Shown: positions 1-54,836 of the stretch, piece by piece | Layout of the letters: every line of letters starts with the position of its first letter | Numbering within the stretch: position 1 is the first letter of the stretch | Translations under genes and position numbers: made by a program | Assembly: GCA_008632985.1 (NCBI GenBank) | Contig: QPGO01000053.1 | Location: forward strand, 1 to 64,000 | Direction: 5' to 3' | DNA: 64,000 nt | Source: Psammoneis japonica | Taxonomy: Eukaryota | The notes under the pieces: model-generated | What the model was told of the DNA's origin: nothing | Seen by the model: the letters and a program-made list of their open reading frames with translations, nothing else | Databases searched by the model: none

Positions 1-156
1 ATCCTTCTCACCGACAAGGGCAAGGCTCTCATTCGCGAAAATGTGGGTCTTCTGACGCACAGACCGTCTGCCACTCCTTGTCTGAGCACGCGCTTGCCTC
101 CACCCGCGCATCTGTCGAGTCCTCCACCCTGCTCACGCACCTGACCACCGCGCGTC

Positions 157-3100
157 TTGGTGATGGCACTTGGAAAGGTCCGACCCACGGTTCATCCTTC
201 ATTGGCAAGATCAGTTGCGCAAGTACGAGGCACTCATCCCGCCAGTGACCACTTCTCTGAAGGACAGAAGCGCGTCATGCTCGAGAATGCCGTGCACCCT
301 GTCGAGGAACTCCGTGCTGTCAAGAACCAAGCTGATCAGCATCGCACGCAGAGTGGCAGAGCTCACATGGATCAACACTGTGGCTTGCTCCTCTCCGCGG
401 CAGCTCAGTGCGACAGCACGTTTCAACCCAAGACGACACCTCGAGCTCCCCGACGCGCCACATGCGCACATGACGTCTGCTCCGAGGAACCGTCCGATGA
501 TGTGTTCTACGACATTGACAGCGACGTTGACGTCCTTCAGGCCAATGCTGCCTACACCCGCGGTCCCAGCCTCACCGGTGTCCAATGGAGACGTCTCCCT
601 CCCGACCACCAACGGCTCTGGGATTCGTTGCCCGATTCCTCCAAGGCGATCATCCTTGAGCATTCTCGTCCACCTCCCCGCAACCCGCGAGCCAGTGACC
701 ACCATGAGTCTGTTACGGCCAACCTTCATGACCAACGCCTTGGGAGTGACGGTGATGTCAACTTGTCCAACACGACTCCTGCGTGCTCTGGTGACTCCGC
801 TCCACATGTGGACGCCACTTCGGACAATCCCATCCTGGCGCACCTCACCAAGCGCAAGCCACTGCCACCCGGTGATCTGCAACGTCTGTTGTCTCCTAAC
901 CAAGCCCACAATGCCAGTCGACCGGGGCCATCCGCCGCTTCCTCTACCCCGCCAGCTTCTGCAGATGACACAGAACTTAACGGCCGCACTTGCCGCCGCG
1001 TCAACAACCACAATGTCATTTGCTCTGCCTCTGCTCATCGCTCCACACGCACTGGTGCTCTAGTCGATCGTGGGGCCAACGGCGGCATTGCTGGCGACGA
1101 CGTTCACGTCATTGCACGCACCTCTCGCCAAGTCGACGTTCAGGGCATTGACGATCATCAGTTGGTGGACATCCCCATTGTCACCGCTGGTGCCGTTGTT
1201 GAGACCCAGCGTGGTCCCGTCATCGCCATCCTCCATCAGTGCGCATGCACGGGCAAGGGCAAGACCATCCATTCCTGCGGCCAGCTCGAATGGTGCAAAC
1301 AGGATGTCAACGATCGCTCTGTCAAGGTGCCCAACGGCTTGCAACGTGTTGCCACTCCTGATGGCTATGTCATCCCCATTGACATCAAGGCTGGCCTGCC
1401 TTGTGTTGCCATGCGACCTTACACTGATGCCGAATGGGACACCCTGCCCCATGTCATCCTCACCGGTGATGACACATGGGACCCTTCCGTCCTCGATCAC
1501 TCTGTCACTGACGACGACCAGTGGTGCGACGCGATCTCTGANNNNNNNNNNNNNNNNNNNNNNNNNNNNNNNNNNNNNNNNNNNNNNNNNNNNNNNNNNN
1601 NNNNNNNNNNNNNNNNNNNNNNNNNNNNNNNNNNNNNNNNNNNNNNNNNNNNNNNNNNNNNNNNNNNNNNNNNNNNNNNNNNNNNNNNNNNNNNNNNNNN
1701 NNNNNNNNNNNNNNNNNNNNNNNNNNNNNNNNNNNNNNNNNNNNNNNNNNNNNNNNNNNNNNNNNNNNNNNNNNNNNNNNNNNNNNNNNNNNNNNNNNNN
1801 NNNNNNNNNNNNNNNNNNNNNNNNNNNNNNNNNNNNNNNNNNNNNNNNNNNNNNNNNNNNNNNNNNNNNNNNNNNNNNNNNNNNNNNNNNNNNNNNNNNN
1901 NNNNNNNNNNNNNNNNNNNNNNNNNNNNNNNNNNNNNNNNNNNNNNNNNNNNNNNNNNNNNNNNNNNNNNNNNNNNNNNNNNNNNNNNNNNNNNNNNNNN
2001 NNNNNNNNNNNNNNNNNNNNNNNTCACTGACGTCTACGGCACTAAGACGGACAAAGAGTTTGTCAACACACTCGAGGATCAGATCCGTGAACGTGGTGCC
2101 CCATCCAAACTCATTAGCGACCGTGCTCAAGTTGAGATCAGCAACAAAGTGCTCGGGATCCTGCGCGCCCTCTTCATCTCTAGCTGGCAAAGTGAGCCTC
2201 ACCAGCAACACCAAAACTTTGCCGAACGTCGACACCAGACCGTGAAGCGCATGGCGAACACTGTCATGGATCGTTTTGGTTCGCCTGCCCATGCATGGCT
2301 GCTGGCGCTCATGCACGTGTGCTTCATGCTCAACCATGCAGCGTCCCCACGTCTCCACTGGCGCACGCCCCTCGAGACTCTCACTGGCTCCACCCCGGAC
2401 ATCAGCCCGTTGCTTCGCTTTCATTGGTGGGAACCCGTGTGCTTCCACCTCGATGACTCCGATTGGCCGTCCGAATCCCGTGAGTTGCGTGGACGCTTCG
2501 TTGGCATTGCTGAGCACGTCGGCCACCAGATGACCTTCAAGATTCTATCTGACGAGACTCAGAAGATCCTCTGCCGGTCCAACGTCCGCTCCGCTACCCC
2601 CGATCCTGCCGTTCGAAACCTGCATCTTGATCCTCCTGATGGGGAGCCACCTGAACCCATCATCAAATCTCGCCATGACGACAACCCCGTCGACTCTCCT
2701 GATGGGGAGATCAGGACACCCAAGATGCCAGTTTTCGATCCGCAAGACATCATTGGACGTACCTTCCTCATGCAGCCACAAGAGGACGGACAACGCCACA
2801 GAGCTCGCATCGTCAAGGCCGTCGAAGACCACGAATGGAAAGTGAACGGCAATCCCGAGCTCACTAAGTTCGTCTGCTCTGTCAACAATGACGAATGCGA
2901 GGAAGTCCTTGCCTGCAATGACATCATGAATCACATTGAGCAAGAAGACGAAGACACCACTGTTTGGAAATTTCGACGCATCGTGTCGCACGAAGGACCT
3001 CTGAAGCCTCATGACCCAACCTGGAAAGGCTCCAGCTACAATGTCATGCTTGAATGGGAAAGTGGGGAGATCACGTCCGAGCCTCTTGCCATCATCGCCA

Positions 3101-5035
3101 AGGACGACCCCGTCACCTGTGCCATCTATGCACGAGAGAACGGACTCCTCGACACGGATGGCTGGAAGCGGTTCCGCACCATCGCGAGGCGCCAAAAGAA
3201 GCTATTTCGCATGGCCAACCAAGCCAAGCTTCGCTCCCTCCGCACTGCACCTCGCCACAAGTGTGGATGCGAAGTTCCCTGGAACTACAAACACGCCATG
3301 TCACTAGACGAACGCAACGGCAACCGCAAGTGGGGAGACGCAACTAATCTCGAGATGGACCAACTCGACGAATACGAAGTCTTCCATGACTGCGGGCCCT
3401 TCAAGTCTTCCACTCCTCCTGCGGGACACAAGAAGATCCGAGTGCACCTAGTGTGCGACGTGAAACACGACGGTCGCCACAAGGCACGACTCGTAGCCGA
3501 CGGGCACCTCACGGACGTACCTGTCGACAGTGTCTACTCCAGAGTAGTCTCCCTCCGTGGCCTTCGGCTGATGATTTTCCTGGCCGAACTCAACGAGTTG
3601 GAGACATGGGCCACCGACATTGGCAATGCCCACCTTGAAGCCACCACCAAGGAGAAGCTTTACATTGTAGCTGGACCCGAGTTCGGCAAACTCGAAGGGC
3701 ACATCCTTGTCATCCACAAGGCACTGCATGGACTGCGCAGCTCCGGTCTCCGCTGGCACGAGCGCTTCACCGACTGCCTGCGAGCTGAAGGCTTCTTCCC
3801 CTGCCGTGCCGAACCCGACATTTGGATGCGCAGGAACGGCGACCACTATGAACACATTGCCGTTTATGTGGATGACCTCGCCATTGCCATGAAGGACCCT
3901 CAATCTTTCGTCGACACTCTCACGGAAAATCACAAGTTCAAGCTCAAGGGTACGGGACCCATTGAGTTCCATCTGGGTTGCGACTTTTCCCGGGAACCCA
4001 ACGGAACCTTGTGCCTGTCTCCGCGCAAGTACATCGAGCGCATGGTCGACAGCTGCCCGACTGTTTGGGGAGAAACCTGCCACCAACGCCCTGTCACCTC
4101 TAGAGAAGGGTGACCACCCCGAACTGGACACTTCCGAACTGCTGGGACCCGATGGCATTCACAAGTTCCAGTCTCTTGTTGGTTCACTCCAATGGGCAGT
4201 GTCCCTTGGTCGAATTGACATTGCCACGGCCGTCATGTCACTCTCTAGCTTCCGAGCTGCGCCCCGTCAAGGCCACTTGGACCGTGCCAAACGCGTCTGT
4301 GGGTGCCTCTCCAAGATGCGACACGGTGCTCTCCGCGTTCGCACGGAAGAGCCCGACTGTTCGGATCTCCCTGCTCCGGCCTGTGAATGGATGCATTCCG
4401 TGTATGGTGAAGCAGAAGAGATGATCCCGAAGGACGCTCCACCGCCCCTTGGCAAGTTCGTCACCACCACCCACTACGTCGATGCAAACTTGTGCCATTG
4501 CATGCTCACCGGACGCTCTGTCATGGGAATGCTCCACTTCCTCAACAAATTCCCGGCTGATTGGTTCTCTAAGAAACAAGCCACCGTGGAGACTGCGACC
4601 TACGGGTCTGAATTTGTTGCCGCAAGGACTTGTGTTGAGCAGATCATTGACCTGCGCATCACCCTGCGCCACCTTGGCGTCCCGATCCGTAACGTTAGTT
4701 ACATGTTCGGTGACAACAAGTTGGTTGTAGACAGTGCCACCATCCCGCACTCCAAGTTACACAAGCGACACACCGCACTATCGTTCCACCGTGTGCGTGA
4801 GGCAATTGCCTCTGGTTGCCTTGAGTTCCACTTCATCGAAGGCTCCCGCAACCCTGCTGACATTCTCAGCAAGCATTGGGGTTACTCCCAAATCTGGGAC
4901 CTTCTCCGCCCCCTCATGTTCTGGAACTTCATTCCATCCAAAGTCGAATCTGTTTCTGTGGATCCTCAAGCAAACTGGGGAGTGACAGGATTTGAACAGG
5001 ATTCAGGTGCGCGCGAAGTATCGCACGCTGTTTAG
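157..5035 (+). pseudogene. Copia gag-pol polyprotein with a frameshift near 4060 and many Tyr->Cys/His substitutions
   Basis: ORFs 157..4113 and 3962..5035 join into a complete pol. The frame changes at VDSC/RLFGEKP. Confidence 0.9.
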
Positions 5036-5191
5036 TTTACCGTGCACAGTTTTGTGTGCTTTAGTTCCGCGCGTTCACGCGCGATGTAGTTTGCTTTCGA
5101 GCCACAAGGCTCACAAGAATGACAACAGTAGCCCGATCATGCCAACTTACACGTCTTTCGGCTCCCGCAACGGTCTCTGAGCGGAGACTCA
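4983..5191 (+). repeat. Putative 3' LTR (TGA...TCA, ~209 bp)
   Basis: Starts TGACAGG right after the polypurine tract and ends GAGACTCA. CpG density collapses immediately after 5191. The 5' LTR is not in the window, so the end cannot be confirmed. Confidence 0.6.
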
Positions 5192-6517
5192 TCTGCCATT
5201 TAGACAGCAGCAAGGAGTTGTTGTTTGAATTCTTGCCATTTGCCTTCAATTTCTGTCAGTCATGCTCCAGAGCCAGTGCCACAGACAGGGCAATGGCAGG
5301 GGGGGAGAGCAGCTCCACAGACTCAAATTTGGTGGCAAAGCAGTGCACAACAGTGCACAGGTCCTCAGCAAATTCTTCCACTGCCACAGCCCATGACCCG
5401 CCTGATGTTGACAAAGAATTGTCATCTGGGGTCAAGTGGGGGATGATGTCAAATTGGAGTCAACACCAGCAAGGTCAGGTGGATGGCCCAAGTGACTCCA
5501 GTTGCTTGGCCCTGCAGTGTCATTGGCAAGCCATTCACCACAAACAGACAAAGGTTGCAGCCAGCTTGCAGAAAATCCGGAGGTGCACTTGACTCAAATT
5601 GCATGTCTGAGGCAGTCTCATTCATCACAAAACCAAGCATCTCATTGGACACTTCAGCGGCAAAGGGGCATGAGTGGTTGCACGTGCAGCGTCTTTGCAT
5701 TGTTGATTGTGGAACTTTCATTTAGAGACAATGGAGGTAACTTTGTTGGTGTTGAGCTTGACAATTTCCAGAAGCAATGCAAAATGGGCCAGTTGAGAGC
5801 AGCTGCAATGACTGTGACCATGTGTGGCACACGCATCACAAAAATCAAGTCCTTGCAGGATTGAAACAATGCACTCTGGCAGTCCAAGAGACCAGACTGA
5901 TTTTGACCATGGCATGCATTCAGCAAGCCCATGGGATCAGTGGAGGCAGCAAGCTTTGGGTCAATCTGTGTGATGAGAGAGACAAGTTGCAGGTCATGTG
6001 GTGATGGAGCAGAGTTGCCAAGTCCATTGAGTTTGTGCTTGAGGAGGAGAGCTGATCCACATGGACCTGCAGGGACAGCCTTGAGGAGCTTCAGCAACTT
6101 GTTGCACTTGGAGTGTGTGCCAGTGGTGCAGACAGGTTGGTCTTGGCAGCGGATTCTTCAGCTGCCACAAAGCAAACAGTGAACTCATCCACCAGTTTGC
6201 ATGGGTTGCCCTTCCAGGATGGCATCTCAACCACTTTCCCAGCAAGAGTGGGAAGACCAATGGAGGCAAGATGGTTTTAATGGCAAAGCCATCCACAGAG
6301 GCAGCACATGTCTTCTTCCAATCATTGCACAAACAATGATCTGGCAGCATGTCATCCTGGAGCAGATGGCAAACTGCTGTTGGCAAGACATGCTCACCAG
6401 CATTGGATCACAGAAGTCAGACTTGTCACAAGTCAAGGTGTCAGGGTCCCAAATCGGAATTTTGGCCTGAGTGCACCAGGTGTGGATGCCTTTGAGGAAG
6501 ACAGCAAGGGGTTTTGG

Positions 6518-6561
6518 CACTGCAGTGCCTTTCCAATGACACTGCAGTGCCTTTCCAATGA
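6518..6561 (+). repeat. Perfect 22-bp tandem duplication CACTGCAGTGCCTTTCCAATGA x2
   Basis: Seen directly. Confidence 0.9.
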
Positions 6562-8719
6562 CAAAGCTGTCTTCGCCCAGCATGCAAGGACAAAGTGCCC
6601 AAAAACTTGTCACCAGATGGAGTTGACAAATCCAAGGATCTGGTGCAAGGCAGTCAGTGACAGAGCCAATGACTCATGCAATGCATTCTGTGGCTGCAGT
6701 GCCCATGGCATTCTTGGTGGCAGGAGCCAGGTCCACAGATTGGGCAGGCATGTTGGCAGTCCTGGATGGATGCAGCACAGAGAGATGTGCAATGGTCCTG
6801 CAGCTCCTTCTGAACACTGGCAACAGTGCATTGTGTGGCTTTGGAGAACTTTGCAGCAGTTTTGAGTTTTTCAGCCTGAATCTGGAGGGCATCACTCTGC
6901 GCAATGAGCTGAGCTTGAATGCCATTAAATTGGCCCCAAAGTGCAGCAGCCACAGCATGCTTTGCAACAAAATGGGGCCGGGGTGCAAGGGGGTTGGTGC
7001 AGATGACAAATCAGAATTGGACATGGGTGTGTGGAGGACATGACAATGTTTTCACAGTCATCCAAAACACCAGTCACAGCATCCACCACAGTGAGGCGCC
7101 ATTCTGGACAGTCTGTTTGGCACCCGCCTCAGTGGATTCTAGGTGTGCAAGTGTGATCTCCAGCTCATCAGTCTGTTGCTTGACACAGACACCTGGATGC
7201 AGGCCCAAAACTTCTTCAAAGTGGTGCTGACAACATTGCTGACAACACGCACAGCTTTGGATGCAGACAATTCAATGCATTGAATGTGGGTGTCCACAAA
7301 CAATTCTGGGTTGTTTTGTGCAACAGTCATCATCTTGCGCACTCATTCCAGAACAGTGGCTTCCATTGACTCATGCACTCTGACAGTGTGTCTGTCTCCA
7401 GTGCTGCCAGAAACTTCTTGTCACAAGCAGTGATTGCTTCATTGGCTGCATTGCCTGCAAGAAAAATGGCGTTGGCTGTTGCAGCCTCCATCTGGGAGTT
7501 CACTTCCATGCAGAAAGTGTCGAAGTCTTGGGAATGACCAAAATCAGTTGCAGCAGTGCTTTGGGAGAGCCCATGTGTCTCAGAGCACAGGTTGCAGACT
7601 TCTTGGTGCTGGAGTTTGCTGACTTCCTCCAAAGATGCAGCAAATGCCACTTTGCATTCATCTGGCTGTTCAATCACAGAGTCAACGTAGCTGTGACATT
7701 GTGAGAGAAGTTCTGAGTCAGGGATGGGTGGTGAATGAGGTGGTTCCGGTGGTTTGGCCAGCGGCGGCGGCACATCTGGTGGTGTGTGAGGCCAGTCAGG
7801 AGGCAGCTCAGGGGGCAAGCAAGGTGGGAGATGAGGCAAAATTGGCTGCAAAGGAGCAATGGCAGCTTGAGGTGTCAGAAAAGGAGTTGCTCCATTGTCA
7901 GGTGTTGCAACAGCCACCTCAGCCTCTGTGGCATTGTCTGCTGCAGGAGACACAGGAGGAGATTTTGTTGTTGCACACGCCGTTGTGACAACCATGGTTG
8001 TTGCAGGCAACATGCAAGGTGCCACTTTGGGGTTTTCAGTGGCTGGTGTTCCATCGGCCGATGACAGAGAGAAATCATCCTGAAGGGATGAGAGTTTGGC
8101 CCATCATGAGGATGCCATTTTGGAGTGGACAATGTCAGCAAGCACCATGGTTGCAAGAGAAGGAAAAATCCATCATCATTGCACCACGCAAGGGCAGCAG
8201 GTCTTGGAACTTGGTGGTGTGCAACCAACAAGAATGCAGTGCACACAGAAGGAATGCTGCAACACGTGCAAGCAGATGCAAAAACAAAAGGCAATGGTGT
8301 GAAGCAGCAACCAATGTGAGTGCACCGTTGTCATTGACAGAGCAGCAGAGTTCACATTGCAAATGCTCTCTGCTGGTGTTGTTGACAATGGGAAAAGAGG
8401 AGAGTGTTGTGTTGCCATTTGTGACCTTGTGCAAGCATTGCTCACCACCTGACAGAGACCCCCATGTCTGTGCAGATCTGTTCAATTGGATCCCAGCTGT
8501 GTGCTTTTGGCAAAGTTGAAAAGAGCCACCCACAACCTCCATTGCCTTGCTGCATTGTTGTTCTTGGTTGCATGCTCCTTCAACAAGCCAGCACTCAAGA
8601 GCTGCAGCCCAGCCCCCTTGATGAGCCACCATCAATCAGCTTGGCCTGGGTCACCCCAGCCATCCTCACCTCATCCCTCATCTCTGACCCTTCTCTCAGT
8701 CTTCTCTGGCCCATCTCTG

Positions 8720-9162
8720 GATTTTGCCCTTTGTCACATGATTTTGCATTTCTTTTGAAAACAGGGCTCACACATTGCTGCCCCTTGTCACATGGTGTTG
8801 CCCTTCATTTGAAAACAGCTGCCCTTTGTTTGAAAACAGCTTGCAGTGTTGCCCTTTCTTGTTGCCCTTCACATCACACAACGTTGCCCTTTTTGTGAAA
8901 ACAGCTGCCCTTCATCACATGATGTTCAACCTCTTTTAAAAAAGTTGCCCTTCTTTTGAAAACGTGGCCCATCACATCATGGTGTTGCTCTTCTTTTGAA
9001 AACAGGGCCCACATTTTTGCCCCCCCCATCACACGATGTTGCCACTCATCACAGCCCCCTTCTTCACATGACCCTTCTTTTGAAAACAGTGCTCACGATG
9101 TTTCCCTTCATCACATGGTGCCCTTCATCACATGGCATTGCCCTTTCTTGTTGCCCTTCATT
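8720..9162 (+). repeat. Array of shuffled short motifs (TTGCCCTT, TTTGAAAACAG, CATCACATG)
   Basis: Each motif recurs many times within ~440 bp. Confidence 0.75.
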
Positions 9163-9613
9163 GTGCAGTGTGCATGCAGACAAAAGGTCATTTTTGTCAC
9201 GCCCTTTGTGACATTTAAAGGCTGTGACACGTCGCCGTGACACATTGGCTCTTGTTGGTGGCTGTACATTGCACTCCTCCCCATGCATCACGCGTCCACA
9301 CGGCTCTTTACTGACGTGCACTGACACTGCACGGTTTTGGCGGAACAGTGTGGGCACGCACGAAGGAACGCACAGAACTGCACAGAGTTTTGCACGTTCG
9401 ACAGTGATCAACGTTGCTGCAGACAACTCCCACTCAGGGTTTCGAACCCCTGGCCTCCTGCCCAATGGTTGCGATGAACCACTCCGTTGTGAATTCACAA
9501 TGCAGTGTGCATGCAGACAAAAGGTTGTTTTTTGCAACGCCCTTTGTGACATTTAAAGGCTGCAACACGTCGCCGTGACACATTGACTCTTGTCAGCAGC
9601 TGCACATTGCACT
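9163..9613. repeat. Two ~112-bp direct repeats (9163-9274 and 9501-9613), each with imperfect terminal inverted repeats (MITE-like), flanking a ~225-bp spacer
   Basis: Both copies read TGCAGTGTGCATGCAGACAAAAGG...CCCTTTGTGACATTTAAAGGCTG...TG(T/C)ACATTGCACT. Confidence 0.8.
9426..9490 (-). other. tRNA-like fragment (SINE head or tRNA pseudogene)
   Basis: Minus strand has GAGTGGTT (A-box-like) and CAGGGGTTCGAAACCCTG (B-box/T-arm hairpin). No complete acceptor stem. Confidence 0.45.
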
Positions 9614-12344
9614 TTCCTGAGGGAGCAACATTTCAAGCAAAAAAAAATGGCGAACGTCAAAGGACCTGCAAATTGCTGGTGGCCTGGCTTCAGCTTCACT
9701 CTCAGCAGCTCAAAGAGCATTCCGTTGAGACAGAGAACAGGGGAAGACTGAAGCAGATCTCCAAATGGAGTCATGTCCTGTGTCTGTTGACTGAAGTTGA
9801 GAAAATCTCTTTGCCCAATTGGGGACAATTGACAAAAGTCATGCTCCATTGGCCCAAACCACTTGCTGCAAACTGCAGCAGCACTTGGCTCCTTCTGATC
9901 CACTGAAGCAGTCTTGGTCACTTCAATGATTGCGTGCGCAACATCCTGTTTTGCCAATTGACCACATCTTCAACAAAACTTCTGCTCACGTTGTCACTTG
10001 TGGCACACTTGAGATGATGTCCAATGACAAGCCATTTGTGCTCACCCTCAGAAAATGCAAGTTTCTTCAACACAGTCACATGCTCAATTTCAATTCATTG
10101 TGCCAGGTCACTCACATGATCACCAGCAAATGGAGACACCAAAAAATTTGGGGATTGCAGAAGACAGCACACACCATCAATTGAGAGACTTCATCTTGGT
10201 GTCATGTGGGAGCGAGGCTTCATTGAGAACAAGTTGCAACAACAGGTTCCAACGGCTCTCCTCTCACAGAGAATGCATCTGCCTCATCCACAGAGATCCC
10301 AAAGCATGGAACACTGCAAAGATTTGAAGCAGGATGACAGCACATGCATGTGGGTTGGAGCAGCAGCACCAAAAAACCCTTGGCCACCGTGTGCCAAGAG
10401 AGTTTTTTGTGTCCAGAAAACTGACACATCACCACAGTTTGAGAAGCCAAATTGAGCTCATTGTTTTTGATCAAGGCAACCACAGCCGGGCAATCTCAAG
10501 CTCAGGCATTGTCGCCACACCACTCTTTGACTGTCCCCTCATTTCCTTGGCCCCTTTGGCAACAATGTGAGGGATGCACCAAGCTCTTCTCAATGTTTTC
10601 TGCAGACCATCTTCTTTTTTGGCCCCAGTTGTCATTGTGCGCTGTGTTGACCAGTCAAATGTTTGGTTCTGCTGTCCTGACAATGATCTCTTCCTGGGGT
10701 GGATTTTCAAGGAATGGCTTTCTCCACAAATGGAACATCAAAAGCATGCCACACCATGTTGGTGAAGAAAGCATGGACCAAGACAGGATTTCGGATGTCA
10801 ATTGTCAAGTTTGAGCATTGCTTTGGAGATGACATTTCACTGGGTCATGATTCCTCTGCATTGACTTGCACCATTGATTCATCACAATGGTTGTTGGAGT
10901 CCAAAGGAGCTTTCTGCTCTTCCTCAGAGGACTCACCACCTGCAAAAGGACTGCCAGCTGTCATGTTGGCAATTGCAACATTGAACTTGATTTTGTCTTT
11001 GTCCTTCTTCTTCTGCTCTTCATCCTTCTTCTTCTGCTCTCTGAAAGCCGCCTCCCAAGTTTGACCATTGCTGTTTTTCCAATCTTTTTTGCAAAACAGT
11101 TGTTGCAATGCATGTCATTGTCACAATGCTTGTGATGCCAAGAGTTTCTGCAACATGGCATTTGCGCTTGTGCACAGTGGATCAGCACTTGTTGAAAACC
11201 AGCTTGAGAGCATTCTTTTCTTTGTCCAGCACACATTGTCAAGGTGAAGTGTTGTTTCACTCCACGTCCCTTGTTCAATTCTTTCTTGCCATTGAGAAAG
11301 TGTGTCTGACATTCTTTGCTTTCAGCCAAATCATTCTCATTTGGCTTGAGGGTTGTGAAAGCCAGAGCACAGTGCTTTTCTTCTGTGCAATGCTGCAGGC
11401 AGTCATTGTCTGCAACAATGATCTCAGAGTGAATGAGAGAACCCAAGGAAGTCAGAAACATTGGATGCTGCAGCTGGCCATCAGAGGGAGGCTGATGGCT
11501 GGCTGGCATTGCGTTCACCAGCCAAGGGGCATGGTGGATCAGAAGTGGGTTGGAAAGGGACACAAAGAGGATCACAAAGGGATTGCAAAGGGATCACAAG
11601 GGATCATTCTTGCATTGAATTTTGCAGATGTGAAGGGGCGCGAAACATTCTTGTGAGGGGGGATGACATCTTCTCTTGGCAACTTCAGCAATGCTGGGGG
11701 GTCCTTTGGCAAAACTTTCAATGAAGTGCATGACAGGCACTGAGGGCCTGGACATCTTCCATGATGAGATTCGCAGCTGCGCTCCGGAGCAGGACTGCCA
11801 GCGTGCTTTGCACACCACAGCTTTGAGGTGAACAAGAAGAAGGCCACCGAGGATGACAAGAAGGCTGCCCCTGACCAACTGCCCCTGCAAGGAAACATTG
11901 GAGAGCCATTCAAAGGTGCCATGAAGCATGAGCAGCACATGTGAAGTCGGAGAAGGAAGGTCATGAAGGTGTGATTGGAGGCATTTCAATTTGCAATGTA
12001 ACACACACAGCAGGATCTGCCAGTTGGATTTCTTGTCACCTGTTGATTTCCATTTGCTGCAAATTGAATGCTCTCTCTAGAGAGTGGAGCAGGGCTGCTG
12101 CACTCTAAAAAACGATGACAGCGGCGGAAACTGGAAGCCATGTTTTTTACTGTTCGGATTTTGAATTTGTCGTTTCAGATTTTGACATTGGTCAAAATCT
12201 GTTTTTCCGCCCCATGTGGGCTATGCCCACCAACATGCTGAAATCACGCGTTGCGCGGATTAATTACCGTATCCAAAATGGCGTTGTTGTTGCACTGCCA
12301 ACAGCCAAGGCTAGCCATCCACCTCGATCGCTGCTATTGTAATT

Positions 12345-38554: not shown

Positions 38555-39029
38555 TACGCTAAGCTTTGTTGATTGCAAAATGATCCTTCGTCACCGACCA
38601 AAACAATCTCGACCAGAAACAATTCCGTTAGTGCTCCAGATGTAGATGGCGTTGAGCACCATGACAATTTTCGAAAACACCGCTTCTTGCATGATACGCC
38701 AGACAAAGCAGCTGCCCTTGAATCATCGGTCGCTACCTTACGTTCATTTCGTTTCTGCCTGCTATTACATGACTTGCATCCAGGATCATGTCGGAAAACC
38801 ACAAAGATCATGTCACAAAAATCTCTAGTTGGATGAAACGGACCTGAAGAACGAGTGCTCTGTTGAGTTAGTATGAAAGCGGGGACCCTTAATGATTCAA
38901 TGCCGCATGCCGGTACGAGTGGAAGTATCTTGGTGAAATCTATGAAATCTATCCCCCAAACCAGAGAACGAGAGGTTGGCTACACTCTTCTCTATCGAAC
39001 TCGGTGGGCTTCTGTGTGCTCTTAACCCT

Positions 39030-39251
39030 CTGCTCTAGCAGCTAGCTAATAGTAGTAGGGCCCTCTAGAGCTACCGGTAGAGGTAGATGGTAGCTCTACT
39101 CTCTCTAGCTACTAGTAGCTACTACTTCTACTCTAGTAGCTACTCTCCAGTAGCAGGGGGCACAGAGTAGAGAGCTACTCTAGAGCTAGAGAGTAGCTAT
39201 CTACCGTAACAGAGAGTACCGGTAGAAGTACAGTACTTGTAGTACTTGTAG
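39030..39251. repeat. CTAG/TAG/CTA-rich low-complexity tract
   Basis: Built from CTAG, GTAG, CTAC, AGAG and ACCGGT words. Confidence 0.85.
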
Positions 39252-39259
39252 TTAAGGTT

Positions 39260-39990
39260 CCGATGGGACCTGCAACCCGGATATACTCCGTTGAAAAATG
39301 TACTGACGCTACGTGAAGGGAAACTCGTTGAAAGCTACACAAACATACCACGGTTCTCAGAAATCGTGAGAATCTCAGGATCAGTACGAATGACAATGGC
39401 GTTTGCAACGCTGTGTCGACAGTGCTCCTTCACCTTCCACCCAATATTAAGGGGTATTGGATGGACAACTCAATGACACACACAGTTCTGAAGCGTGATG
39501 GCTGACGGTTGCCCCCCCTCTGTGATGTGGTTAATGCAATGCGTGGGAAGCGTGATGCAGCCGTGCTGAACGAGTCCGATTCAACAACCACGACGCTCAT
39601 CATACTCACTGTAAGTTTGGATTTCGAGAAAATGGTTTCAAGTGTTATGAAGAACAGTATGATGGGTTTGTCACCATTCCAAAGATTGTGCCAAACTACT
39701 TTATTTGAAACAAGACGCTGTTTCTTTCTGCTCACAAAGTGTTGGAGAATGTCGGCTGCACTGCTCGTGCCCCGAATCGAAATAGAAAGACGGGAGATGC
39801 TGTGTCCAAGACAAGTGTGACAAGTACATCAAATGGGAACGACTCTAGATTCAACCATGATATGGAGGAGGGTGTCTACGAAATGGAGGAGGGTGACAGC
39901 TCTCCTGCAACTCCTCATGAGAGTGGAAGAATCGGTTCCACTACAGACAACAAAGAAAATTATGCTGCGCGTCAGACACTCATTATTTGA
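39260..39990 (+). pseudogene. Disrupted ORF, possibly a C-terminal DDE transposase fragment
   Basis: Coding-like fragments across frames with stops; converges on the 40403-41277 relic. Family assignment is weak. Confidence 0.25.
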
Positions 39991-45085: not shown

Positions 45086-45654
45086 TTTCTGAAACACTCT
45101 TTTACACGAAACAGTGTCGGTCTCCAATGCAAAAATTTCGACAAAAGACGTTATCGACCGTTAAACTTGAAAATGACCCGAAAAAAGGCAATGATGAAGC
45201 AAACCGTTGCTTTCACCTGGCTTTCGAGGAAAATCGTTTGCAACCTCAGCGTCGGTGGTCTATCCGACTGAAACAGCACCGATGCGACCCCTCTTCTCTA
45301 CGGCCTCGCGTCGCAATCTCGCTGCAAGAGCAGAGAGTCTACTTGTAACAACACGATCGTGGTGTGTTGTCGTGTGTTGCGTGTGTGCGTTTTGGATGGA
45401 GCTCTCGCACGTAAAAACTCCGTAAGAAATGTAAATACAGTCTGTACGTCGAAAGGTACCTCAACGTGTGTCGATAGAATGGAGCTCGCATAGCTCGAGC
45501 GAGATTACCCGAATACCGAATAACCAAAATGAGGTTCTGGTTCAAAGGTGGGAAACAAGCTTTACAACAATCTCTCTCTAGTTTTTACATGTATTCCTCA
45601 CACATTTGTTTGCTCCAGTTAGACCTCCAATCCAGAAGAAACCACAAAACCTTT

Positions 45655-46245
45655 TCAGGCGTCCCCAGCCGCCTCAGTGGCTTCATCTTCTTCCGGTTCC
45701 TCCTTTCCAATAAGTTTTGCTACAACAGGAGTCAAGAGAACCGTAGGAGGAAACCGAATGGGACTAGCTGCCTTGTGAGCAGCATACGCAATGGCAAAAG
45801 TTCCAGCCTTTTCCGAGGTGTCACCTTCAATCCCAACCTTTGCAAGAAGAGCACCCACATCAACACCCGCGCTAACCAAAAAGTAGCAAATCGTAAAGGA
45901 AACAATCGCCAACGGGATCGAAGTCGCCAGGTAAGCAATGCCATACTTTTTTAATAGCGACTTGGCCGTTTCACCGCCATCATCTTTCTTGAGTGATTCA
46001 AACAAACCTGCTTCGAGGCCGTACTTTTCCGTAGTCGACTCCACACTGGTATCCTCCACCTTTGGTTTATCCAGAGTAGCCGTGTCGGCTTGATCATCAT
46101 TTCCAAAGAAATAAAGGGAAGTCTTTCGAGAGTAAGCCGCCGATCTCGAGGTGTACGTTGGACGAGAAACGGATGGAACGACCGGTTGCCACGACAGAAC
46201 AGAGGCAGCCGCCAGAGAAAGAATAATGAATCGAAGAGCCGCCAT
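45655..46245 (-). CDS. DUF1279/FAM210-like protein, probably plastid-targeted
   Basis: Signal plus transit-like N-terminus; LKKYGIAYL and FAIAYAAHKAASPIRFP. Confidence 0.8.
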   Translation of the reverse strand: MAALRFIILSLAAASVLSWQPVVPSVSRPTYTSRSAAYSRKTSLYFFGNDDQADTATLDKPKVEDTSVESTTEKYGLEAGLFESLKKDDGGETAKSLLKKYGIAYLATSIPLAIVSFTICYFLVSAGVDVGALLAKVGIEGDTSEKAGTFAIAYAAHKAASPIRFPPTVLLTPVVAKLIGKEEPEEDEATEAAGDA

Positions 46246-46442
46246 CTTTTCCACAAACGCTTCAAAGAAATATAAAACCTAGAGAACGGATCCGATTCAA
46301 CGAATCTCGACAAGCCTTGATTGCAACGAACACAAGCTGTTGAGCTGTCCGTGCTGTCAACTTCTTTCTCGATTGTGTAGGGATGTCAGATGCGATGTTG
46401 AATGTAATGGCATGTTGATGTTCGATGCCATTGACGTCAGTT

Positions 46443-46995
46443 GACGTGGAAGTTTTTGGGTTATGGGGTGAAACAGATTCTTGCGGGCTGCTACTCTCTA
46501 CCGGTGCCGGTGCTACTCTGCTCTCTACCAGGCTCTAGCAGCTAGAGTGGTGGCTGCTCTCTAGAGCTAGCTAGAGAGAGTAGAAATCCGGATAAATGTG
46601 GTGAAGTGTCAAAAATCTTCTGCATCCGCATCGCGCTTCGATGACCACATGATGTGTGATGTGTGTGACATCTTCACACAACATGTCACATCACTTCTTG
46701 CTTGTCAGCTTCTGGCTGTGCACTGTTGTTCCATGTTCATTTTTTGTGTGTTTCATTTTCCTTCACATGCCTGGTGTCTCCAGAGAAGCCTGCTTGACTC
46801 AAATCCTTCAGACTCACACAGAAGATGCTCTGTCTGCACTGCAGCAGTGTGCTCAGCAGCAGTTGTTGGGGCAAACGGAGGCCTCTGCTGACAATGAATG
46901 CCGCGGTGTGTGGCGGTCTTGTGGGGGGGATCTCAATCACTGTCTTTCAATGACAGTGAGCCATCAAGGGCCAAGAAATGTAGAAAATTCATGGA
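46443..46995 (+). pseudogene. Mutated duplicate of the promoter and 5' coding end of the gene at 52857
   Basis: Colinear with 52568-~52992 (GGGTTATGGGGTGA, CCTGGTGTCTCCAGAG, TCAAATCCTTCAGACT, ATCTCAATCACTGTCTTTC). The start ATG is lost. Confidence 0.88.
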
Positions 46996-47444
46996 TGAGG
47001 AGCCACCAGCTCTCAACGACACACTTGGCAGCCTGGCTGATTGACAGAAAGCAAGTGGCGCACTCCAGCCCCAGGTGGGGCTCCATGCGACATGGGCTTG
47101 CAGAACTCTGCGTGCAAGCTCTGCAGCTCAAGAGCTTGGTCAATGGACACATTTTTGTCTTCAACATCCAAACAAACAACCAAGCTTGTGGCGTGGTTGT
47201 GCCTCCCCTCAGCCCGCCTGCTCTGCTCCGCTCTTGACAGACAATTTTAAGAGCGGCACTGTGAAAACAAATGTCAAAAGTTGTTGAATGGACAGCCCAA
47301 CAATCGCACTGCAAAATGGCACAAAAATGCAACCAAAGTCATGCAGAAATGCATGTGCATGACATGCGGAGCATGACAAGACAACTTCAATGTGTCGCAG
47401 TCCAGCACTGCGAGGTCCCACCCAGAGCTGGAGCATGGCTGCAG

Positions 47445-47925
47445 TGACAAACTTGCCAAATGGCTTGGACATGTGTCAGAAAGATCTCCTTCACATGATC
47501 TTCACCACAAATGGCATGCATCCAGTCATGATGCGCAGGCTTGAGAATGTCCAAGTGGTCAGGCTCTTTGTTGCACACATGTGTGCAAGGCACCATGTTG
47601 CATCTTGGACAAGTGTCTGCAGACATGTTTGGCACAATCAAAGATTGCAGCTTGGCTTGGCTGACCATGTGGAACAGCTTCTTCTGTCACCTTGCAGCTG
47701 CGCAAAAATGTTTCCAGCCTTTGGCATTGAGAAAGCCATTCTTGTGTGCACAGATGATGGCACAGGTGACAGGGTTGCCCTTGGCAACAACTGTTGGAGG
47801 CTTGGCAGCAAGGATCTGCCTGCTCTCACACTCAAACAAGACATTGCAGCTTGAGCCTTTCCACACAGGCTCTCATGAGATTCCAGCCCTTTGTGTGACA
47901 ACATGCAGCAGAACTTTCACTGAAC
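47445..47925 (-). mobile_element. Decayed, internally deleted copia fragment of the same family as 1-5191
   Basis: Minus strand reads WKGSSCNVLFE...NPVTCAIICAHKNGFLNAKGWKHF...QKKLFHMVSQAKLQSL, then DCAKHVCRHLSKMQHGAL, KEPDH, DWMHAICGE, FGKFVT. Confidence 0.88.
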
Positions 47926-47962
47926 CCCACCATGATGACTCATCAAATTTGTGGATTGGGGG

Positions 47963-48632
47963 GATCAGGACATCCAAGAAGCCATTTTTTGATCCTGCAG
48001 ACATGTTGCCTGATGCACCTTTCTCGTGAAGCCTCAAGAAGGCATGCCATGGAGCTTGCATTGTCAAAGTTGGTGAGAACCATGACAGCTTGTCATTGAA
48101 CATGTCTGGGACAGGGGCTCGTGGAGGCTTTGAGAGGCACTTCTTGGGCTGAATTTGACAATGTCCACAGGACGCTCATGACCATGGTGGGGCAATGGCT
48201 GTGGAGCCAGCGGTGCTGTCAGGAGCTTCCAGCATGTTTGTCAACAAAGCTGTCCAGCCCACCGACACCGCCAAAGCAACAACAAAGCAACAGATGGGGA
48301 GATCAGGACATCCAAGAAGCCATTTTTTGATCCTGCGGACATGTTGCCTGATGCACCTTCCTCATGAAGCCTCAAGAAGGCATGCCATGGAGCTTGCATT
48401 GTCAAAGCTGGTGAGGACCATGACAGCTTGTCATTGAACATGTCTGGGACAGGGGCTCGTGGAGGCTTTGAGAGCACTTCTTGGGCTGAGTTTGACAATG
48501 TCCACAGAGGACGCTCATGAACATGGTGGGGCAATGGCTTTGGAGCCAGCGGCACTGTCAGGAGCTTCCAGCATGTTTGTCAACAAAGCTGCCACAGCCC
48601 ACCAACACTGCCAAAGCAACAACAAAGCAACA
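47963..48632 (+). repeat. ~338-bp tandem duplication whose first ~140 bp is a plus-strand copia fragment
   Basis: GATGGGGAGATCAGGACATCCAAGAAGCC at ~48293 matches copia 2701 GATGGGGAGATCAGGACACCCAAGATGCC. Confidence 0.88.
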
Positions 48633-49366
48633 ACGTTGCTGTGCCAACCAGGCAAAAGCTCGGCCAAAGAAGAAGGTGGCAGCTCACCCCATGTGTGGCC
48701 ACAAGCCCCCCCTTGCCCCCCCCCCTTTGGGTTGACAGGCTGTTGTGGTGAAAGGGAAGGAGAAATTCATTCTTCACCAGGTTGAGGCAATGTGGCCTTT
48801 GTTGCCTTGGGTTTTGGTCGGCTGCAGGGGGGGCTCCAACCTCGGAGCACTGCCAGGCTTGGACCCAACACACCATTGAGAAGAGAGCTGAAAGCACCGG
48901 TGGCTGTTGCTTTTTCTCTTCTAGTTTTCTCTTCTAGAAAAGAATGAACATCAACAATCTACCCCTGCGAGCCAGCGAGTGAATTTTGAAAGGGGCAGGC
49001 AGTGCGAGTGGCATGGCCCAGGTCCGCAGAAAAAAGGGCGCTCGAAAACATGACGGTTGGAATGCGGACCTATTCCCACGCAGACCCCGCGGAGTGTCCA
49101 TGCCGCGCCGGAAAAAATGAAACGCGGGTTGTCGTTCGTGCCAAGTGCCAAGTTGCTCACGTGCTCACAAAGCGAAAGCGTCGCTGATGTCCACAATCCT
49201 TGTCATCTGTGCCGGTAAGCTGTGCGTACACGGCCCTTCATTTGTTGTGATCGCAGTGCAAAAACTGCCCTTGAGAGCGCCCTAGTAGCTGGGAATGCTC
49301 GACAGGCCGTAGCAGGGTAGCAGGCCATACAACGAAGCCATTTGCACCTTCTTCTTTTCCTCAGAA

Positions 49367-51415
49367 ATGAGCAACAACAAGAAGAAGAGGAGCACGAACC
49401 ATTCGGAGGACTCCGATGGTGGCGGAAACAATTTTGCGTCAGAAATTCCATGGCTCACGGAAAGAGAGAAGGCGGCGAAACCAGCAGCCCATGCTTTCAA
49501 TGAAGAAGAGGATTTTCACATCACTAAGATAGGAAAACAAGTCAACAAGGGTGAGGCTGGGGGCTTTTTGGCACCAACGGTAGCTCAGGGAGCATCTGCC
49601 ACCAGCAGTTCTTCACATCGCAGGCGCCGTGGTACCAGCAGCAATAGAGTCGATGAAGGTGATACCCAGCCTGCAGTTGGTGGAATTCAAATCCTAGACG
49701 AAAGAATGATGGACCATAACATGACTTCTCCTAACGGTGCAAGCATCTCTCTTACTGCTGCTGGCGTTGTTGGTGAGCCTGAAGAACGCATTGGACTCTC
49801 TGTCCATCCTGGAGCAGTTCACGTTCCGGGACCTGGAGGAGGGGAGGACCGAGAGGAGGAGGATTCCACATGGCAGCAAGCTTCTCAAAGTGGTTCTCAC
49901 CTCCACGGTGGAGAGAGCACAACATTGGTGCCACCAGTGCTTGAAGCACAATTGGTGGACGATGACCGAACATACATTCTTGAAGAAAACCGCCGGTTGA
50001 GAGAACGGGTAGCTCAGATGGAAAGTGAACCGCAAAGGCAAGAAATCGTTGCAGCAGGAGTCGTTACAAACAGAAGCAGCATAATTCTATCATGGTTTGC
50101 AAAGCACAAACGGTTTGTTGGAGGGTGTGTTCTACTTTTGTTGGTTGGTGTTATTGTTGCCATTGTGTTGGGCGTTGTGATTGGTGAAAATGGGTCAACG
50201 CCGACAACATTAGCCTCTGTGTCTTTAAGTCCCACAATATCGTTTCAGCCAACGGACGGGCCATCTCCAACGGACAACACCACGGAATCGCCAATGCCTA
50301 GTAACACACCGTCGATAACAGAGACTCCTCAAGGGTATAACTGTGAACCTCTCAATGCTGACTTCCAAGTACGCTGGAAAGTAGATGGGGAGCATATTGC
50401 GGTCGAGCTCTTAGGTCTGATTGGTGAATCAGAATACATGGCTTTTGGTATTTCAGGCGACGATACATCCACCAGCATGATAGGGGCTGACGCAGTTGTT
50501 GCGTATGCCTTTAACGGTGCATTTCGTGCCCGTGACTATTACATGAATATCCGTGCCCAATGCAACAACGGCGACGGGGTGTGTCCTGATGACACCACTG
50601 GCATTTTCGACAACGACGTCACCAAAGTCTCAGGAGAAGAAGATTCTGGTATCACCTTGATCAGATACACGCTTCCGTTAACTCCCTCTAATATAGGTGA
50701 AGACGCGGGGGGTCGAACGGTAGATCGAGCCATTTCGGTAGAACCTGCCGTCTTCACTTTCATCGTGTGGGCGCTGGGACCATTTGATCCGAACACGGGG
50801 TTGCCATTTTTTCACTCCATCGGGTTCCCTCGGAATGACGTAAGCCTCGAGTTTGGACGAGCCGTGGTGGACAACTGCAGCCCATATATAGGAGAAGCAA
50901 CGGAGCCGCCCATGGAAGCGGAAGTCGACTGTTCCAACTTAAATGACAGCCCGATGGAGCTGGCGGCCGGTTTGACCCTCAGCGCTGGTATCGATCCTGT
51001 CGCAAACACATTGATTGCTGAACTTGTTTACGACGGTGTCGGATGGCTGGCCATGGGTTTTACGGCGGGAACCGCGTTGATGGTAGGATCAGAGGCAGTT
51101 ATTGGTTTACCCGACCAACAAAATAGTCAATCAAACCCGGGCAAGTACAATCTGAATGCTAGAGCTTTCTCCGGAGTACAACTTATGCCTGACAGCCAGC
51201 AGACTCTAATCAACTCGTCTGTTGTTCAAGAAAATGGGCAGACCATCCTGAAGTTTACGAAGCTCTTATACGAACCAGATGAATACCAGATCTCCGAGAC
51301 TGAGAAGAATACCTTTTTGTTCGCCTACGGATTTGATAACAATCTAGGGATACATGCAGTGCGCGGGGGGTTTTCTTTAGCCCCAAGGCATTGTAAGGGT
51401 GGCAAACCCGATTGA
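49367..51415 (+). CDS. Type II membrane protein with two DOMON domains
   Basis: TM VGGCVLLLLVGVIVAIVLGVVI. YMAFGISG...MIGADAVV...FH and GWLAMGF...MVGSEAVIG...IH give the Met/His haem-ligand pattern. Confidence 0.85.
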   Translation: MSNNKKKRSTNHSEDSDGGGNNFASEIPWLTEREKAAKPAAHAFNEEEDFHITKIGKQVNKGEAGGFLAPTVAQGASATSSSSHRRRRGTSSNRVDEGDTQPAVGGIQILDERMMDHNMTSPNGASISLTAAGVVGEPEERIGLSVHPGAVHVPGPGGGEDREEEDSTWQQASQSGSHLHGGESTTLVPPVLEAQLVDDDRTYILEENRRLRERVAQMESEPQRQEIVAAGVVTNRSSIILSWFAKHKRFVGGCVLLLLVGVIVAIVLGVVIGENGSTPTTLASVSLSPTISFQPTDGPSPTDNTTESPMPSNTPSITETPQGYNCEPLNADFQVRWKVDGEHIAVELLGLIGESEYMAFGISGDDTSTSMIGADAVVAYAFNGAFRARDYYMNIRAQCNNGDGVCPDDTTGIFDNDVTKVSGEEDSGITLIRYTLPLTPSNIGEDAGGRTVDRAISVEPAVFTFIVWALGPFDPNTGLPFFHSIGFPRNDVSLEFGRAVVDNCSPYIGEATEPPMEAEVDCSNLNDSPMELAAGLTLSAGIDPVANTLIAELVYDGVGWLAMGFTAGTALMVGSEAVIGLPDQQNSQSNPGKYNLNARAFSGVQLMPDSQQTLINSSVVQENGQTILKFTKLLYEPDEYQISETEKNTFLFAYGFDNNLGIHAVRGGFSLAPRHCKGGKPD

Positions 51416-52445: not shown

Positions 52446-52856
52446 TGCTATACAGTATCGAGGACGCAGCCGACAAGCGACGCTAGATGATAGCGATATG
52501 ACTAGGTTTGGCATCGCATCTTCTTTTTCTTCGAAAGAGGAATTAGAAATTGGTCGCGGATGCATCAGACGTGAAATTTTGGGTTATGGGGTGATACGGA
52601 TTCGCGCGGGAAACTAATTCACTTCTACAAATCCGAATAAATAGAATGAATTATCAAAAATCTTCCCATCGCGCTTCGACGACATGATGATGTTATGTGT
52701 GATGTGCGACATTATCAGAACACCATCTGCTTTCCATCGTTCTGTGTTCATTTGTTGTGTATTTCGTTTTGCGTTACGTGCCTGGTGTCTCCAGAGTAGA
52801 AGCCCGGTTGATTCAAATCCTTCAGACTGATAGAAGATACTGTCTGTGCTACAACC

Positions 52857-54836
52857 ATGTTCGAAAATTGGGGCGAATGGAGGCCCCCGACCATGAAGAC
52901 CGCGGTGTATGGTGGTCTCGTGGGGGTCATCTCAATCACTGTCTTTCGATACCGTCGAGCCATCCAGCGAGAAATGCAGAAAGTTCAGGACGAATCATTG
53001 ATATTTGGTGGCCTGACGATGGTCAGGCAAAAACCTTCGGTCGATAATGTCAGTACACGTTCTCTTGGGCGCACCATGGTTTTGGAGTTAAACCCAGATT
53101 TTGTTGAGCTTCACAACGAAAAATGGCGTTTCACGAGTTTGGGCGACTACTTATCGAGTCTTCGTCCCGGAGTCATACCAGGAAACATCGAGACAAAGGA
53201 TCTTCCAGGTTGGATTCAGACCGAATTAGAGGCGGGGTTGGCGACTTCTCTTGTCAAACTGCTTGGCCCAACCGCAGGGAGAGCTTTGCTTCCCGCATTA
53301 GGCATGGGACCGGTGCCTTCGGTTGTCAGTACGGTGGCATCGAATCTCGTGTCCCGCTTCTGGTCAAAGAGCTCCAAGGAAGGCGGCGAAGATCAAGGAC
53401 TCCTTTCTCTGACCTTGTACAATGCTCTTGGATTCTCAGATATGAACGCAACACGTGTGTCAAACAAAAAGAAGCGCGACCCGGAAAGCACTACCAACGA
53501 AGATCTCACAGCCATGGACAAGATGAAAATAGGTGAATACGGACCGACACCATCATATGGGTCCTCCTTTCTAGCAAAAGATGAGGAGTCTTCCGAACAG
53601 GAAAAGCCATTGATACCAAACCCGTTTGTCGTGTCTGAACACTGGGAGCCTGCGATTCGTGGGATGGAAGAACTTATATCCAGTTCGGCGAGTTATCAAG
53701 GCGCTGCGACTCGGATGGAGGTCGATGCTAGGAATGACATTGATCCTTCAAAAGAAGAGAATGTCGTTGAAGTTATCAAGTATGACCCGAACGGAAAAGA
53801 GTTGATCGAGCCAGTTCCCGTGGACGAGAAGATTTTCCCTGACCTTCACCTTGGGTTTGGTGGCGCAAAGTGTACACACACTCATCGAGAAATCGTCCAG
53901 AACCGTCTCATTGCGGTACTGCTAAACCGCCTGGCGGCTAACTATCACGACTTCTACACTGATGGAGAGACAGAGGAGAAGTTTATACTCCAAATGGATA
54001 AGGCTGGAAAGCAAATTTCTCGCCCACATGAGTTCTTTGATGCTCTAATTGAAAGTGGTCACGATGTGACAATGCAGGTCGCGACGCAGCCGACAACTTT
54101 CGGGGTAGCGTTGTGCATCAAAGAGGAGGACGGGAGTTGGACAAATGTTCCACTCTCATATTTCTTTGGAAGTGGATACGAAACTGACTCTGGGCAAAAA
54201 GTGCCAGCATTGCTGCCACACAGTGGGGTGAATCTCGAGTTGACGGGTCCTCTAATTGGGTCCTCTTCCAGGTGCAGTCTTCAGCACTACATGGCAATTG
54301 AAGGAATGTGTGGGTGGCACTCCAATCATGACGCCGATGTCCCGTGGCTCCAAAGAACGTACTGCGGGCCTTCCTTGAAAGGGGTGGATGTGTCGCGTGC
54401 CGCGAGAGTTGCAGCGTTGTACGGTGTCTTGCTGAACACTGTCGGTACTGAAATGGATCTTCCATTTGGAGGCTATGGCTTGACAGCAGTTTGTAATGAT
54501 ACTGCGGCGGTTCTGGAGCACTCACTCCATGGTTCAACCAATATATATCCTCTTACATCTATTGGTCGATTTTCTATGCATGTGATTCGATATGCGAAAC
54601 AAGTAAGAGACAACATGTCAAATGACGAATCCATGGCAGCCGAGGTAAAAGATTTGAATTCTCTTATGCGCTCAATCCGAAGCATTCCCTCTGACTTGGC
54701 TCCCTCGCCAAGAAATGTTGAGGATGCAGGGAAAAGAATGCTTCACTGTCTCCCCGATGATTTACCATTTGAGCTCATGTTGCAAACAGAGAAAAACATG
54801 GGTGTCATCATGGAGGAATACGAACATTTTGGATGA
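52857..54836 (+). CDS. Hypothetical 659-aa protein with N-terminal membrane anchor
   Basis: Long uninterrupted ORF; PFGGYG..VCND motif; function not recognised. Confidence 0.8.
   Translation: MFENWGEWRPPTMKTAVYGGLVGVISITVFRYRRAIQREMQKVQDESLIFGGLTMVRQKPSVDNVSTRSLGRTMVLELNPDFVELHNEKWRFTSLGDYLSSLRPGVIPGNIETKDLPGWIQTELEAGLATSLVKLLGPTAGRALLPALGMGPVPSVVSTVASNLVSRFWSKSSKEGGEDQGLLSLTLYNALGFSDMNATRVSNKKKRDPESTTNEDLTAMDKMKIGEYGPTPSYGSSFLAKDEESSEQEKPLIPNPFVVSEHWEPAIRGMEELISSSASYQGAATRMEVDARNDIDPSKEENVVEVIKYDPNGKELIEPVPVDEKIFPDLHLGFGGAKCTHTHREIVQNRLIAVLLNRLAANYHDFYTDGETEEKFILQMDKAGKQISRPHEFFDALIESGHDVTMQVATQPTTFGVALCIKEEDGSWTNVPLSYFFGSGYETDSGQKVPALLPHSGVNLELTGPLIGSSSRCSLQHYMAIEGMCGWHSNHDADVPWLQRTYCGPSLKGVDVSRAARVAALYGVLLNTVGTEMDLPFGGYGLTAVCNDTAAVLEHSLHGSTNIYPLTSIGRFSMHVIRYAKQVRDNMSNDESMAAEVKDLNSLMRSIRSIPSDLAPSPRNVEDAGKRMLHCLPDDLPFELMLQTEKNMGVIMEEYEHFG

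Follow-up and report, generated by a model that had tools for sequence, protein, structure and literature searches.

A duplicated gene start straddling the edge of a TpA-free tract points to DNA mutation confined by chromosome position

When transposon-bearing DNA is stripped of its TpA and CpG dinucleotides, is the extent of the damage set by the bases that are repeated or by their place on the chromosome? This question is raised by a stretch of 64,000 nucleotides (i.e. the window), in which the upstream region and 5' end of a host gene are found a second time, next to a copia relic. The two ends of this copy differ in the fate of their TA and CG sites. Our main reading, held with a probability of roughly 0.6, is that the copy was mutated in place at the DNA level and that the extent of this mutation was set by chromosome position and not by the duplicated bases. 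The features concerned are collected in Table 1.

Table 1. Coordinates of the features discussed, in order along the window
Feature	Position	Strand	Basis or main values
Better-preserved copia-type ORF, reference for the relic	145..4113	+	RVT_2 (Ty1/copia reverse transcriptase), E=3.2e-27
Second TA-free, CG-poor block	5202..11998		TA 11 vs 438 expected; CG 81 vs 411
Flanking gene, FAM210A/B-like domain	45655..46245	-	First ATG 349 bp from left edge of tract
Dead copy of upstream region and first ~45 codons of the 52857 gene	46443..46996	+	Alignments, repeat families, outgroup alignment
Left part of copy, outside tract	46443..46593	+	TA kept 4/4; CG kept 3/5 clean sites
CTAG-rich, partly palindromic 86-nt insertion, copy only	46495..46580	.	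Alignments; absent from source
Right part of copy, inside tract	46594..46996	+	TA converted 8/8 clean sites; CG 14/16 from 46642
TA-free, CG-poor tract	46594..48921	.	2,328 bp; TA 2 observed vs 138 expected
Repeat DNA with rearranged copia relic	46997..48921	.	blastn, alignments
Flanking gene, DOMON domain	49367..51415	+	ATG 445 bp from right edge of tract
Source: upstream region and 5' end of intact 659-aa gene (52857-54836)	52568..52991	+	Diatom homologues, composition

The duplication of a host gene start, on which the original prediction was built, was borne out by local and global alignments and blastn (~78-80% identity of copy to source), by MAFFT (mean column identity of 78%) and by six repeat families (i.e. 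D3, D5, D7, D10, D12 and D13) that join copy and source in register. The window is eukaryotic, with diatom homologues of its genes; the source ORF has 50 homologues, the sole named one being that of Seminavis robusta. The composition of the source segment is normal, with observed/expected ratios of 0.55 for TA and 1.17 for CG; the corresponding ratios for gene-rich DNA of the window are 0.60 and 0.95-0.98. Homology between the two ends at 46996, with repeat DNA from there on, and the copy has in-frame stops at the positions of source residues Y32 and R34. The copy is old (about 9-12% transversions) and the background of ordinary divergence is substantial, so that the order of events has no direct readout.

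The structure of the locus was compared with a DNA run (X1) consisting of contigs of one sample, perhaps the assembly's own and hence a non-independent proof of the assembly. One contig of 5,623 letters is identical to the window throughout 45600-47298; the differences observed were an A>G at 47544 and a small number of indels within the repeat. One contig (depth 60) lies over 46353-46854, 177 contigs, of which 130 are 90-95% alike, pile up on 46855-48611, and the last ~300 bp to 48921 are at single depth. The absence of this pile-up from 46353-46854 indicates that the repeat present in many copies does not include the converted gene fragment, and no other copy of the fragment at a likeness of at least 90% was found in X1.

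All six conversions quoted in the original prediction, and the three motifs described as retained (i.e. TTATGG, GGATAAAT and CATCGCGCTTCG), were found in the sequence. Between 46450-46996 and the source there are 84 mismatches, comprising 25 sites with TA or CG in the source and TG or CA in the copy, three in the reverse direction, 16 other transitions and 40 transversions. The forward conversions divide into nine CG>TG, seven CG>CA, six TA>TG and three TA>CA, and their excess over the reverse class is significant (binomial p=2.7e-5). Within the right part of the copy, transitions affected 9 of 19 bases lying in TA but 12 of 154 other A/T bases (p=4e-5), and 14 of 40 bases lying in CG but 5 of 113 other G/C bases (p=4e-6). 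The conversion signal is thus far above chance.

The direction of change was polarised at the protein level, with 16 homologues aligned of which the nearest are 42-44% identical; the sites polarised in this way are three codons. Source Y32 (TAC) is invariant in all 16 outgroup proteins, R31 (CGA) is an arginine in 13 of 16 and R33 (CGT) in 14 of 16. At conserved source residues the copy encodes C, Q or a stop; the codons for Y32, R31 and R33 read stop, Q and Q, respectively, and the copy has additional stops. The outgroup residues and the stops in the copy together identify the copy as the derived one, in agreement with the claim that the intact gene polarises the change; for Y32, R31 and R33, TA and CG are ancestral and TG and CA derived.

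The source had also been described as looking untouched, and the asymmetry implied by that claim is real: of the 12 TA sites in the source that face the converted part, all are kept, ten of them non-coding and upstream of the first ATG, and forward conversions outnumber reverse ones by 25 to 3. Untouched is nevertheless too strong a word, given the three reverse sites (46876, 46914 and 46981) and two double differences. The latter, at 46732-46733 and 46837-46838, have TG in the source and CA in the copy, and are best explained by an ancestral CG or TA that changed on opposite strands in the two copies; on this basis the source too has had slight ordinary decay. Its few changes are what ordinary mutation would give.

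Conversion had been predicted to follow a gradient rising toward the copia relic. The sites show a step instead. All four TA sites in the left part are kept (46462, 46492, 46581 and 46593) and all eight cleanly aligned sites to the right are converted (46597, 46607, 46749, 46764, 46819, 46840, 46909 and 46951), placing the change between 46593 and 46597, within 4 bp. Of the 12 source TA sites that face the tract, the copy has retained none: besides the eight clean sites, two are converted under other alignments only (source 52713 by MAFFT and 52838 by another alignment) and two fall in indels. Fisher's test for the step gave p=0.0014 with nine converted sites (52713 included), and with the eight clean sites the exact value is 1/495 (~0.002). 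The best-fitting CG step falls between 46639 and 46642, ~45 bp deeper into the tract than the TA step, with 2 of 8 sites converted to its left and 14 of 16 to its right (Fisher p=0.0047). To the right of 46642, CG conversion showed no positional trend (Mann-Whitney p=0.82). A step gave a higher log-likelihood than a logistic slope both for CG alone (-10.5 vs -13.35) and for all sites (-15.1 vs -18.1). Three features account for the appearance of a gradient: the 45-bp spacing of the two steps, a CCGCGG at 46902-5 that escaped conversion, and two isolated CG conversions in the left part. These isolated conversions (46474 and 46482) are two of the five cleanly aligned CG sites of the left part, in which one further site is altered otherwise. 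The right part as a whole has one TA against 27 expected and eight CG against 23. Surviving CG sites within the converted part fall in CGCG-type clusters (i.e. CCGCGG at 46902-46905 and TCGCGCTTCG at 46632-46639), which may reflect either context dependence of CpG decay or chance.

The step could in principle be a boundary of age, the left part having been restored by gene conversion from the source or added later. A precedent within the window is the sharp edge near 5200, which looks like younger copia against an older tract. However, the left part is at least as diverged as the right, with transversions in 8 of 64 aligned columns (12.5%) and 28 of 326 (8.6%), respectively. Such similar loads on the two sides argue that the step marks neither an age boundary nor the limit of a gene-conversion event, and we regard this explanation as very improbable.

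The converted part of the copy forms the first 400 bp of a tract that continues unbroken through the relic to 48921 and fills the middle between two divergently oriented genes. This tract has 37 CG against 153 expected, and TG and CA at ~1.8 times expectation. That a copia relic is present, as had been claimed, was confirmed by DNA homology to the ORF at 145-4113, which itself matches RVT_2. Three pieces (47649-47863, which is inverted, 47957-48067 and 48293-48423) are 70-74% identical to this ORF, and it is by this DNA homology that the relic is assigned to Ty1/copia; Pfam searches of eight of the 35 listed frames (at least 60 aa) from the 46.5-49 kb block detected no transposon domain. A 338-bp unit of the relic is tandemly duplicated (47957-48292 and 48295-48632). 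The two units differ at 14 sites, four being CG against TG or CA and none at TA, so that the duplication would postdate the erasure of TA or would have had no TA left to lose; as additional evidence on timing these units were uninformative and were set aside.

The reference copia is a 1,322-codon open frame broken by a run of 482 N (1542-2023). Its TA ratio is 0.17-0.27 and its CG ratio 0.91-0.94, and the whole element (145-5201) is similar, with TA at 0.17-0.34, CG at 0.89-0.94 and a GC content of 55-59%. Being TA-poor but CG-intact, it indicates that TA loss comes first and is separable from CG loss, and it looks like an early stage in which CpG decay is yet to come. At aligned sites, CG in the copia faces TG or CA in the relic in 13, 8 and 5 cases for the three comparisons, as against 1, 0 and 1 in reverse, the third comparison (5; reverse 1) being derived from the tandem copy of the second and so not independent of it. 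Near 5200, where copia abuts an older tract (i.e. the second block), TA and CG both change abruptly, and the abutting copia looks like the younger DNA. Within that block, Pfam searches of 22 stop-to-stop frames (at least 120 aa; 5-12 kb) gave no matches, and blastn of 1-12400 against the window did not find a second pair of host fragments. CA exceeds TG in the second block (1.96 vs 1.69), a hint of strand bias that is absent from the 46.6-48.9 kb block.

Three tract edges (46594, 48922 and 11999, the last being the right edge of the second block) lie 349, 445 and 346 bp upstream of the start codons at 46245, 49367 and 12345, respectively. These distances comprise three edges only and are counted from ORF-based start codons, not from mapped transcription starts; they suggest that promoter-proximal DNA of active genes may be protected, as if by a zone of fixed size.

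The sequence of events that we propose begins with the duplication of a ~550-bp upstream and 5' piece of the 52857 gene, which came to lie beside the present copia relic. The putatively silent intergenic middle (46594-48921) would then have been mutated in place at the DNA level by two processes. One would be a fast and near-saturating change of TpA to TpG or CpA (i.e. an A:T to G:C transition on either strand), for which the likeliest cause would be deamination of the adenine after T by an ADAT2/TadA-like enzyme. Because TpA is self-complementary, modifying the thymine that precedes A would leave a trace identical to that of deaminating the adenine that follows T; adenine deamination is considered the more likely, with modest confidence. 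The other process would be slower and turn CpG into TpG or CpA, the simplest route being that methylated cytosines are deaminated. Each would end abruptly ~350-450 bp upstream of the flanking start codons and so leave unaffected both the source, 6 kb away, and the leftmost 150 bp of the copy. On the simplest reading the limit would be that of a silent domain nucleated by the transposon, everything inside being converted, unique host DNA included. The existence of a chromatin or silencing domain, the chemistry of the two changes and the role of methylation in CpG loss are all matters that we infer from base composition and site patterns.

The principal competitor to mutation limited by position is mutation triggered by homology or pairing, as in RIP, in which case the converted stretch would start where uninterrupted homology starts and the source would survive through selection or through an asymmetric mechanism. 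The geometry of the left edge fits such a trigger and may be relevant: uninterrupted homology begins where the 86-nt insertion ends, and the TA step (46594-46597) follows 13-16 nt to the right of that point. Most of the 1.9 kb of the tract beyond the gene fragment is also multi-copy repeat (the X1 pile-up at 46855-48611). A functional source gene could also appear spared because lineages with a mutated source were removed by selection, but 10 of the 12 TA sites that it kept are non-coding, upstream of the first ATG. Nor does pairing account well for the mere three reverse sites or for CG conversion beginning 45 bp further in than TA conversion, and the hypermutated NCLDV region of Bigelowiella is described as single-copy (10.64898/2026.01.13.699255, from the part of the preprint available). 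Given a spared source and a step inside the duplicated segment, symmetric targeting defined by pairing is disfavoured, and we consider mutation triggered by homology or pairing unlikely. The original prediction had preferred chromatin- or proximity-based over pairing-based targeting; what stands of this is that conversion is asymmetric and position-bound, while chromatin as the agent is something that we only infer.

A bias against TA and CG acting on the whole genome, with selection keeping both dinucleotides in functional DNA, would need the left part to be constrained, and this part could now serve as promoter of the FAM210-like gene, the unconverted portion being no more than 349 bp from the start codon of this gene. 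The left part is, however, only loosely constrained: despite an 86-nt insertion and transversions in 8 of 64 columns it has kept 4 of 4 TA sites, and the TA-rich insertion region itself retains nine TA. A change completed within 4 bp, and ratios of 0.60 for TA and 0.95-0.98 for CG in gene-rich DNA with silent codon positions included, also speak against such a bias, which we judge improbable. Less probable still is the possibility that an ADAR-like enzyme edited a chimeric RNA of transposon and gene, which was then reverse-transcribed and integrated in an already mutated form. Copia is a retroelement and adenosine deaminases acting on RNA prefer an A after U, so that enzyme preference and element type would both fit. 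Against it, homology to the source crosses the step without a break and continues into the unconverted upstream part, both strands are affected (six TA>TG, three TA>CA), no other copy of the gene fragment at a likeness of at least 90% is present in X1, and CG loss would be left unexplained.

RIP, the functional analogue of the present process, as known from Neurospora changes C:G to T:A, mainly at CpA, and leaves TpA-rich, AT-rich DNA. It mutates both copies of a duplication over their shared length and depends on RID/DIM-2 and a premeiotic stage. The present tract resembles its products in having permanent, dinucleotide-targeted transitions in transposon DNA. The direction is nevertheless opposite, TpA being destroyed and GC content raised, one copy of two is affected, the left 150 bp of that copy are unconverted, the limit falls inside the duplicated segment and the lineage is non-fungal. 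Membership in RIP was rejected on direction (TA 2 vs 138 expected; TG and CA 1.8-fold) and on the fate of the two copies (source TA kept 12/12; 25 vs 3 conversions). The contrast with RIP drawn in the original prediction was correct as to the spared source copy but too sharp, as the DIM-2 branch in Neurospora mutates single-copy DNA next to RIPed repeats (PMC11969663, in the portion available). Spill-over into neighbouring unique DNA therefore has a precedent there, and by itself fails to separate RIP from the present system.

The CG component has a more familiar counterpart. Methylation-driven CpG decay is known for silenced transposons, and the changes at this locus are similar in that CG gave rise to TG or CA in both orientations (9:7), is depleted within the transposon block (14 of 16 sites converted from 46642; 37 vs 153 in the tract) and was lost more slowly than TA. 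Loss of TA lies outside the reach of such decay, and methylation is here presumptive.

A published parallel to the TA component was found only for Bigelowiella natans, an unrelated alga, in a preprint of 2026 (Mettrop et al., bioRxiv 10.64898/2026.01.13.699255). As described in the part of the preprint available, integrated giant-virus and virophage DNA undergoes TpA-restricted hypermutation with a transcriptionally silent, single-copy region as its main target, new mutations arise at about 1000-fold the background rate and an ADAT2-like adenine deaminase is proposed from a candidate gene only. To the extent covered by that text, the two systems share A:T to G:C changes confined to TpA and giving TpG or CpA according to strand (here six and three), a long-term trace of low TpA with high CpA+TpG, and confinement to blocks, which are silent foreign DNA in Bigelowiella and here a discrete, putatively silent interval (46594-48921) that includes a fragment without repeats of at least 90% likeness. 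A single-copy target in Bigelowiella fits targeting by place and not by repetition. On the same partial basis the systems differ in organism (a chlorarachniophyte vs a diatom-like one), in target (here retrotransposon relics and adjoining host DNA), in the degree of depletion (near total here, with TA at 0.01 as compared to a Rho of 0.45), in the CpG loss that accompanies TpA loss here and in the nature of the record, which here is a sequence trace without de novo events. The terms 'CpG', 'boundar', 'flank' and 'diatom' are absent from the preprint text available, and a description of a TpA-erasing process in diatoms was not found in the literature searched at abstract level.

The locus adds an edge defined to a single site inside a contiguous duplicate, a 45-bp offset between TA and CG and regular distances from edges to start codons. 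Because the copy straddles the tract edge and the source was spared, the pair provides a before and after in which the starting point of the mutator is visible site by site. The way in which a TpA-erasing process recognises foreign DNA thereby becomes a testable choice between position (i.e. chromatin) and homology, and the converted gene fragment suggests that such a process may damage host sequence adjoining a transposon. A wider proposal, which we put forward tentatively and hold somewhat less likely than mutation limited by position as such, is that diatoms may have a DNA-editing defence that erases TpA and is aimed by position and not by homology. A transposon-nucleated silent domain would be rewritten to saturation, unique host DNA included, with edges sharp to a few bp and ~350-450 bp upstream of active genes, and methylation-driven CpG decay would follow more slowly within nearly the same limits. 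If true, such a defence would correspond, at the level of mutation, to position-effect silencing.

The 86-nt insertion next to the TA step has features of its own. Of the nine TA in the insertion region, eight lie within 46495-46580 and one (46492) at its left edge. The insertion is akin to an element at 39000-39260 (local score of 65 vs a maximum of 38 among 200 shuffles), and the stability of its fold showed no excess over shuffled sequences (z=-1.09). The motif GCTACTCTCTACC, allowing up to two mismatches, occurs six times in the window as compared to 0.6 expected. This CTAG-rich family is small, and TA is retained in every copy, one of which immediately borders the tract; the family may represent a young mobile element or else a sequence associated with boundaries.
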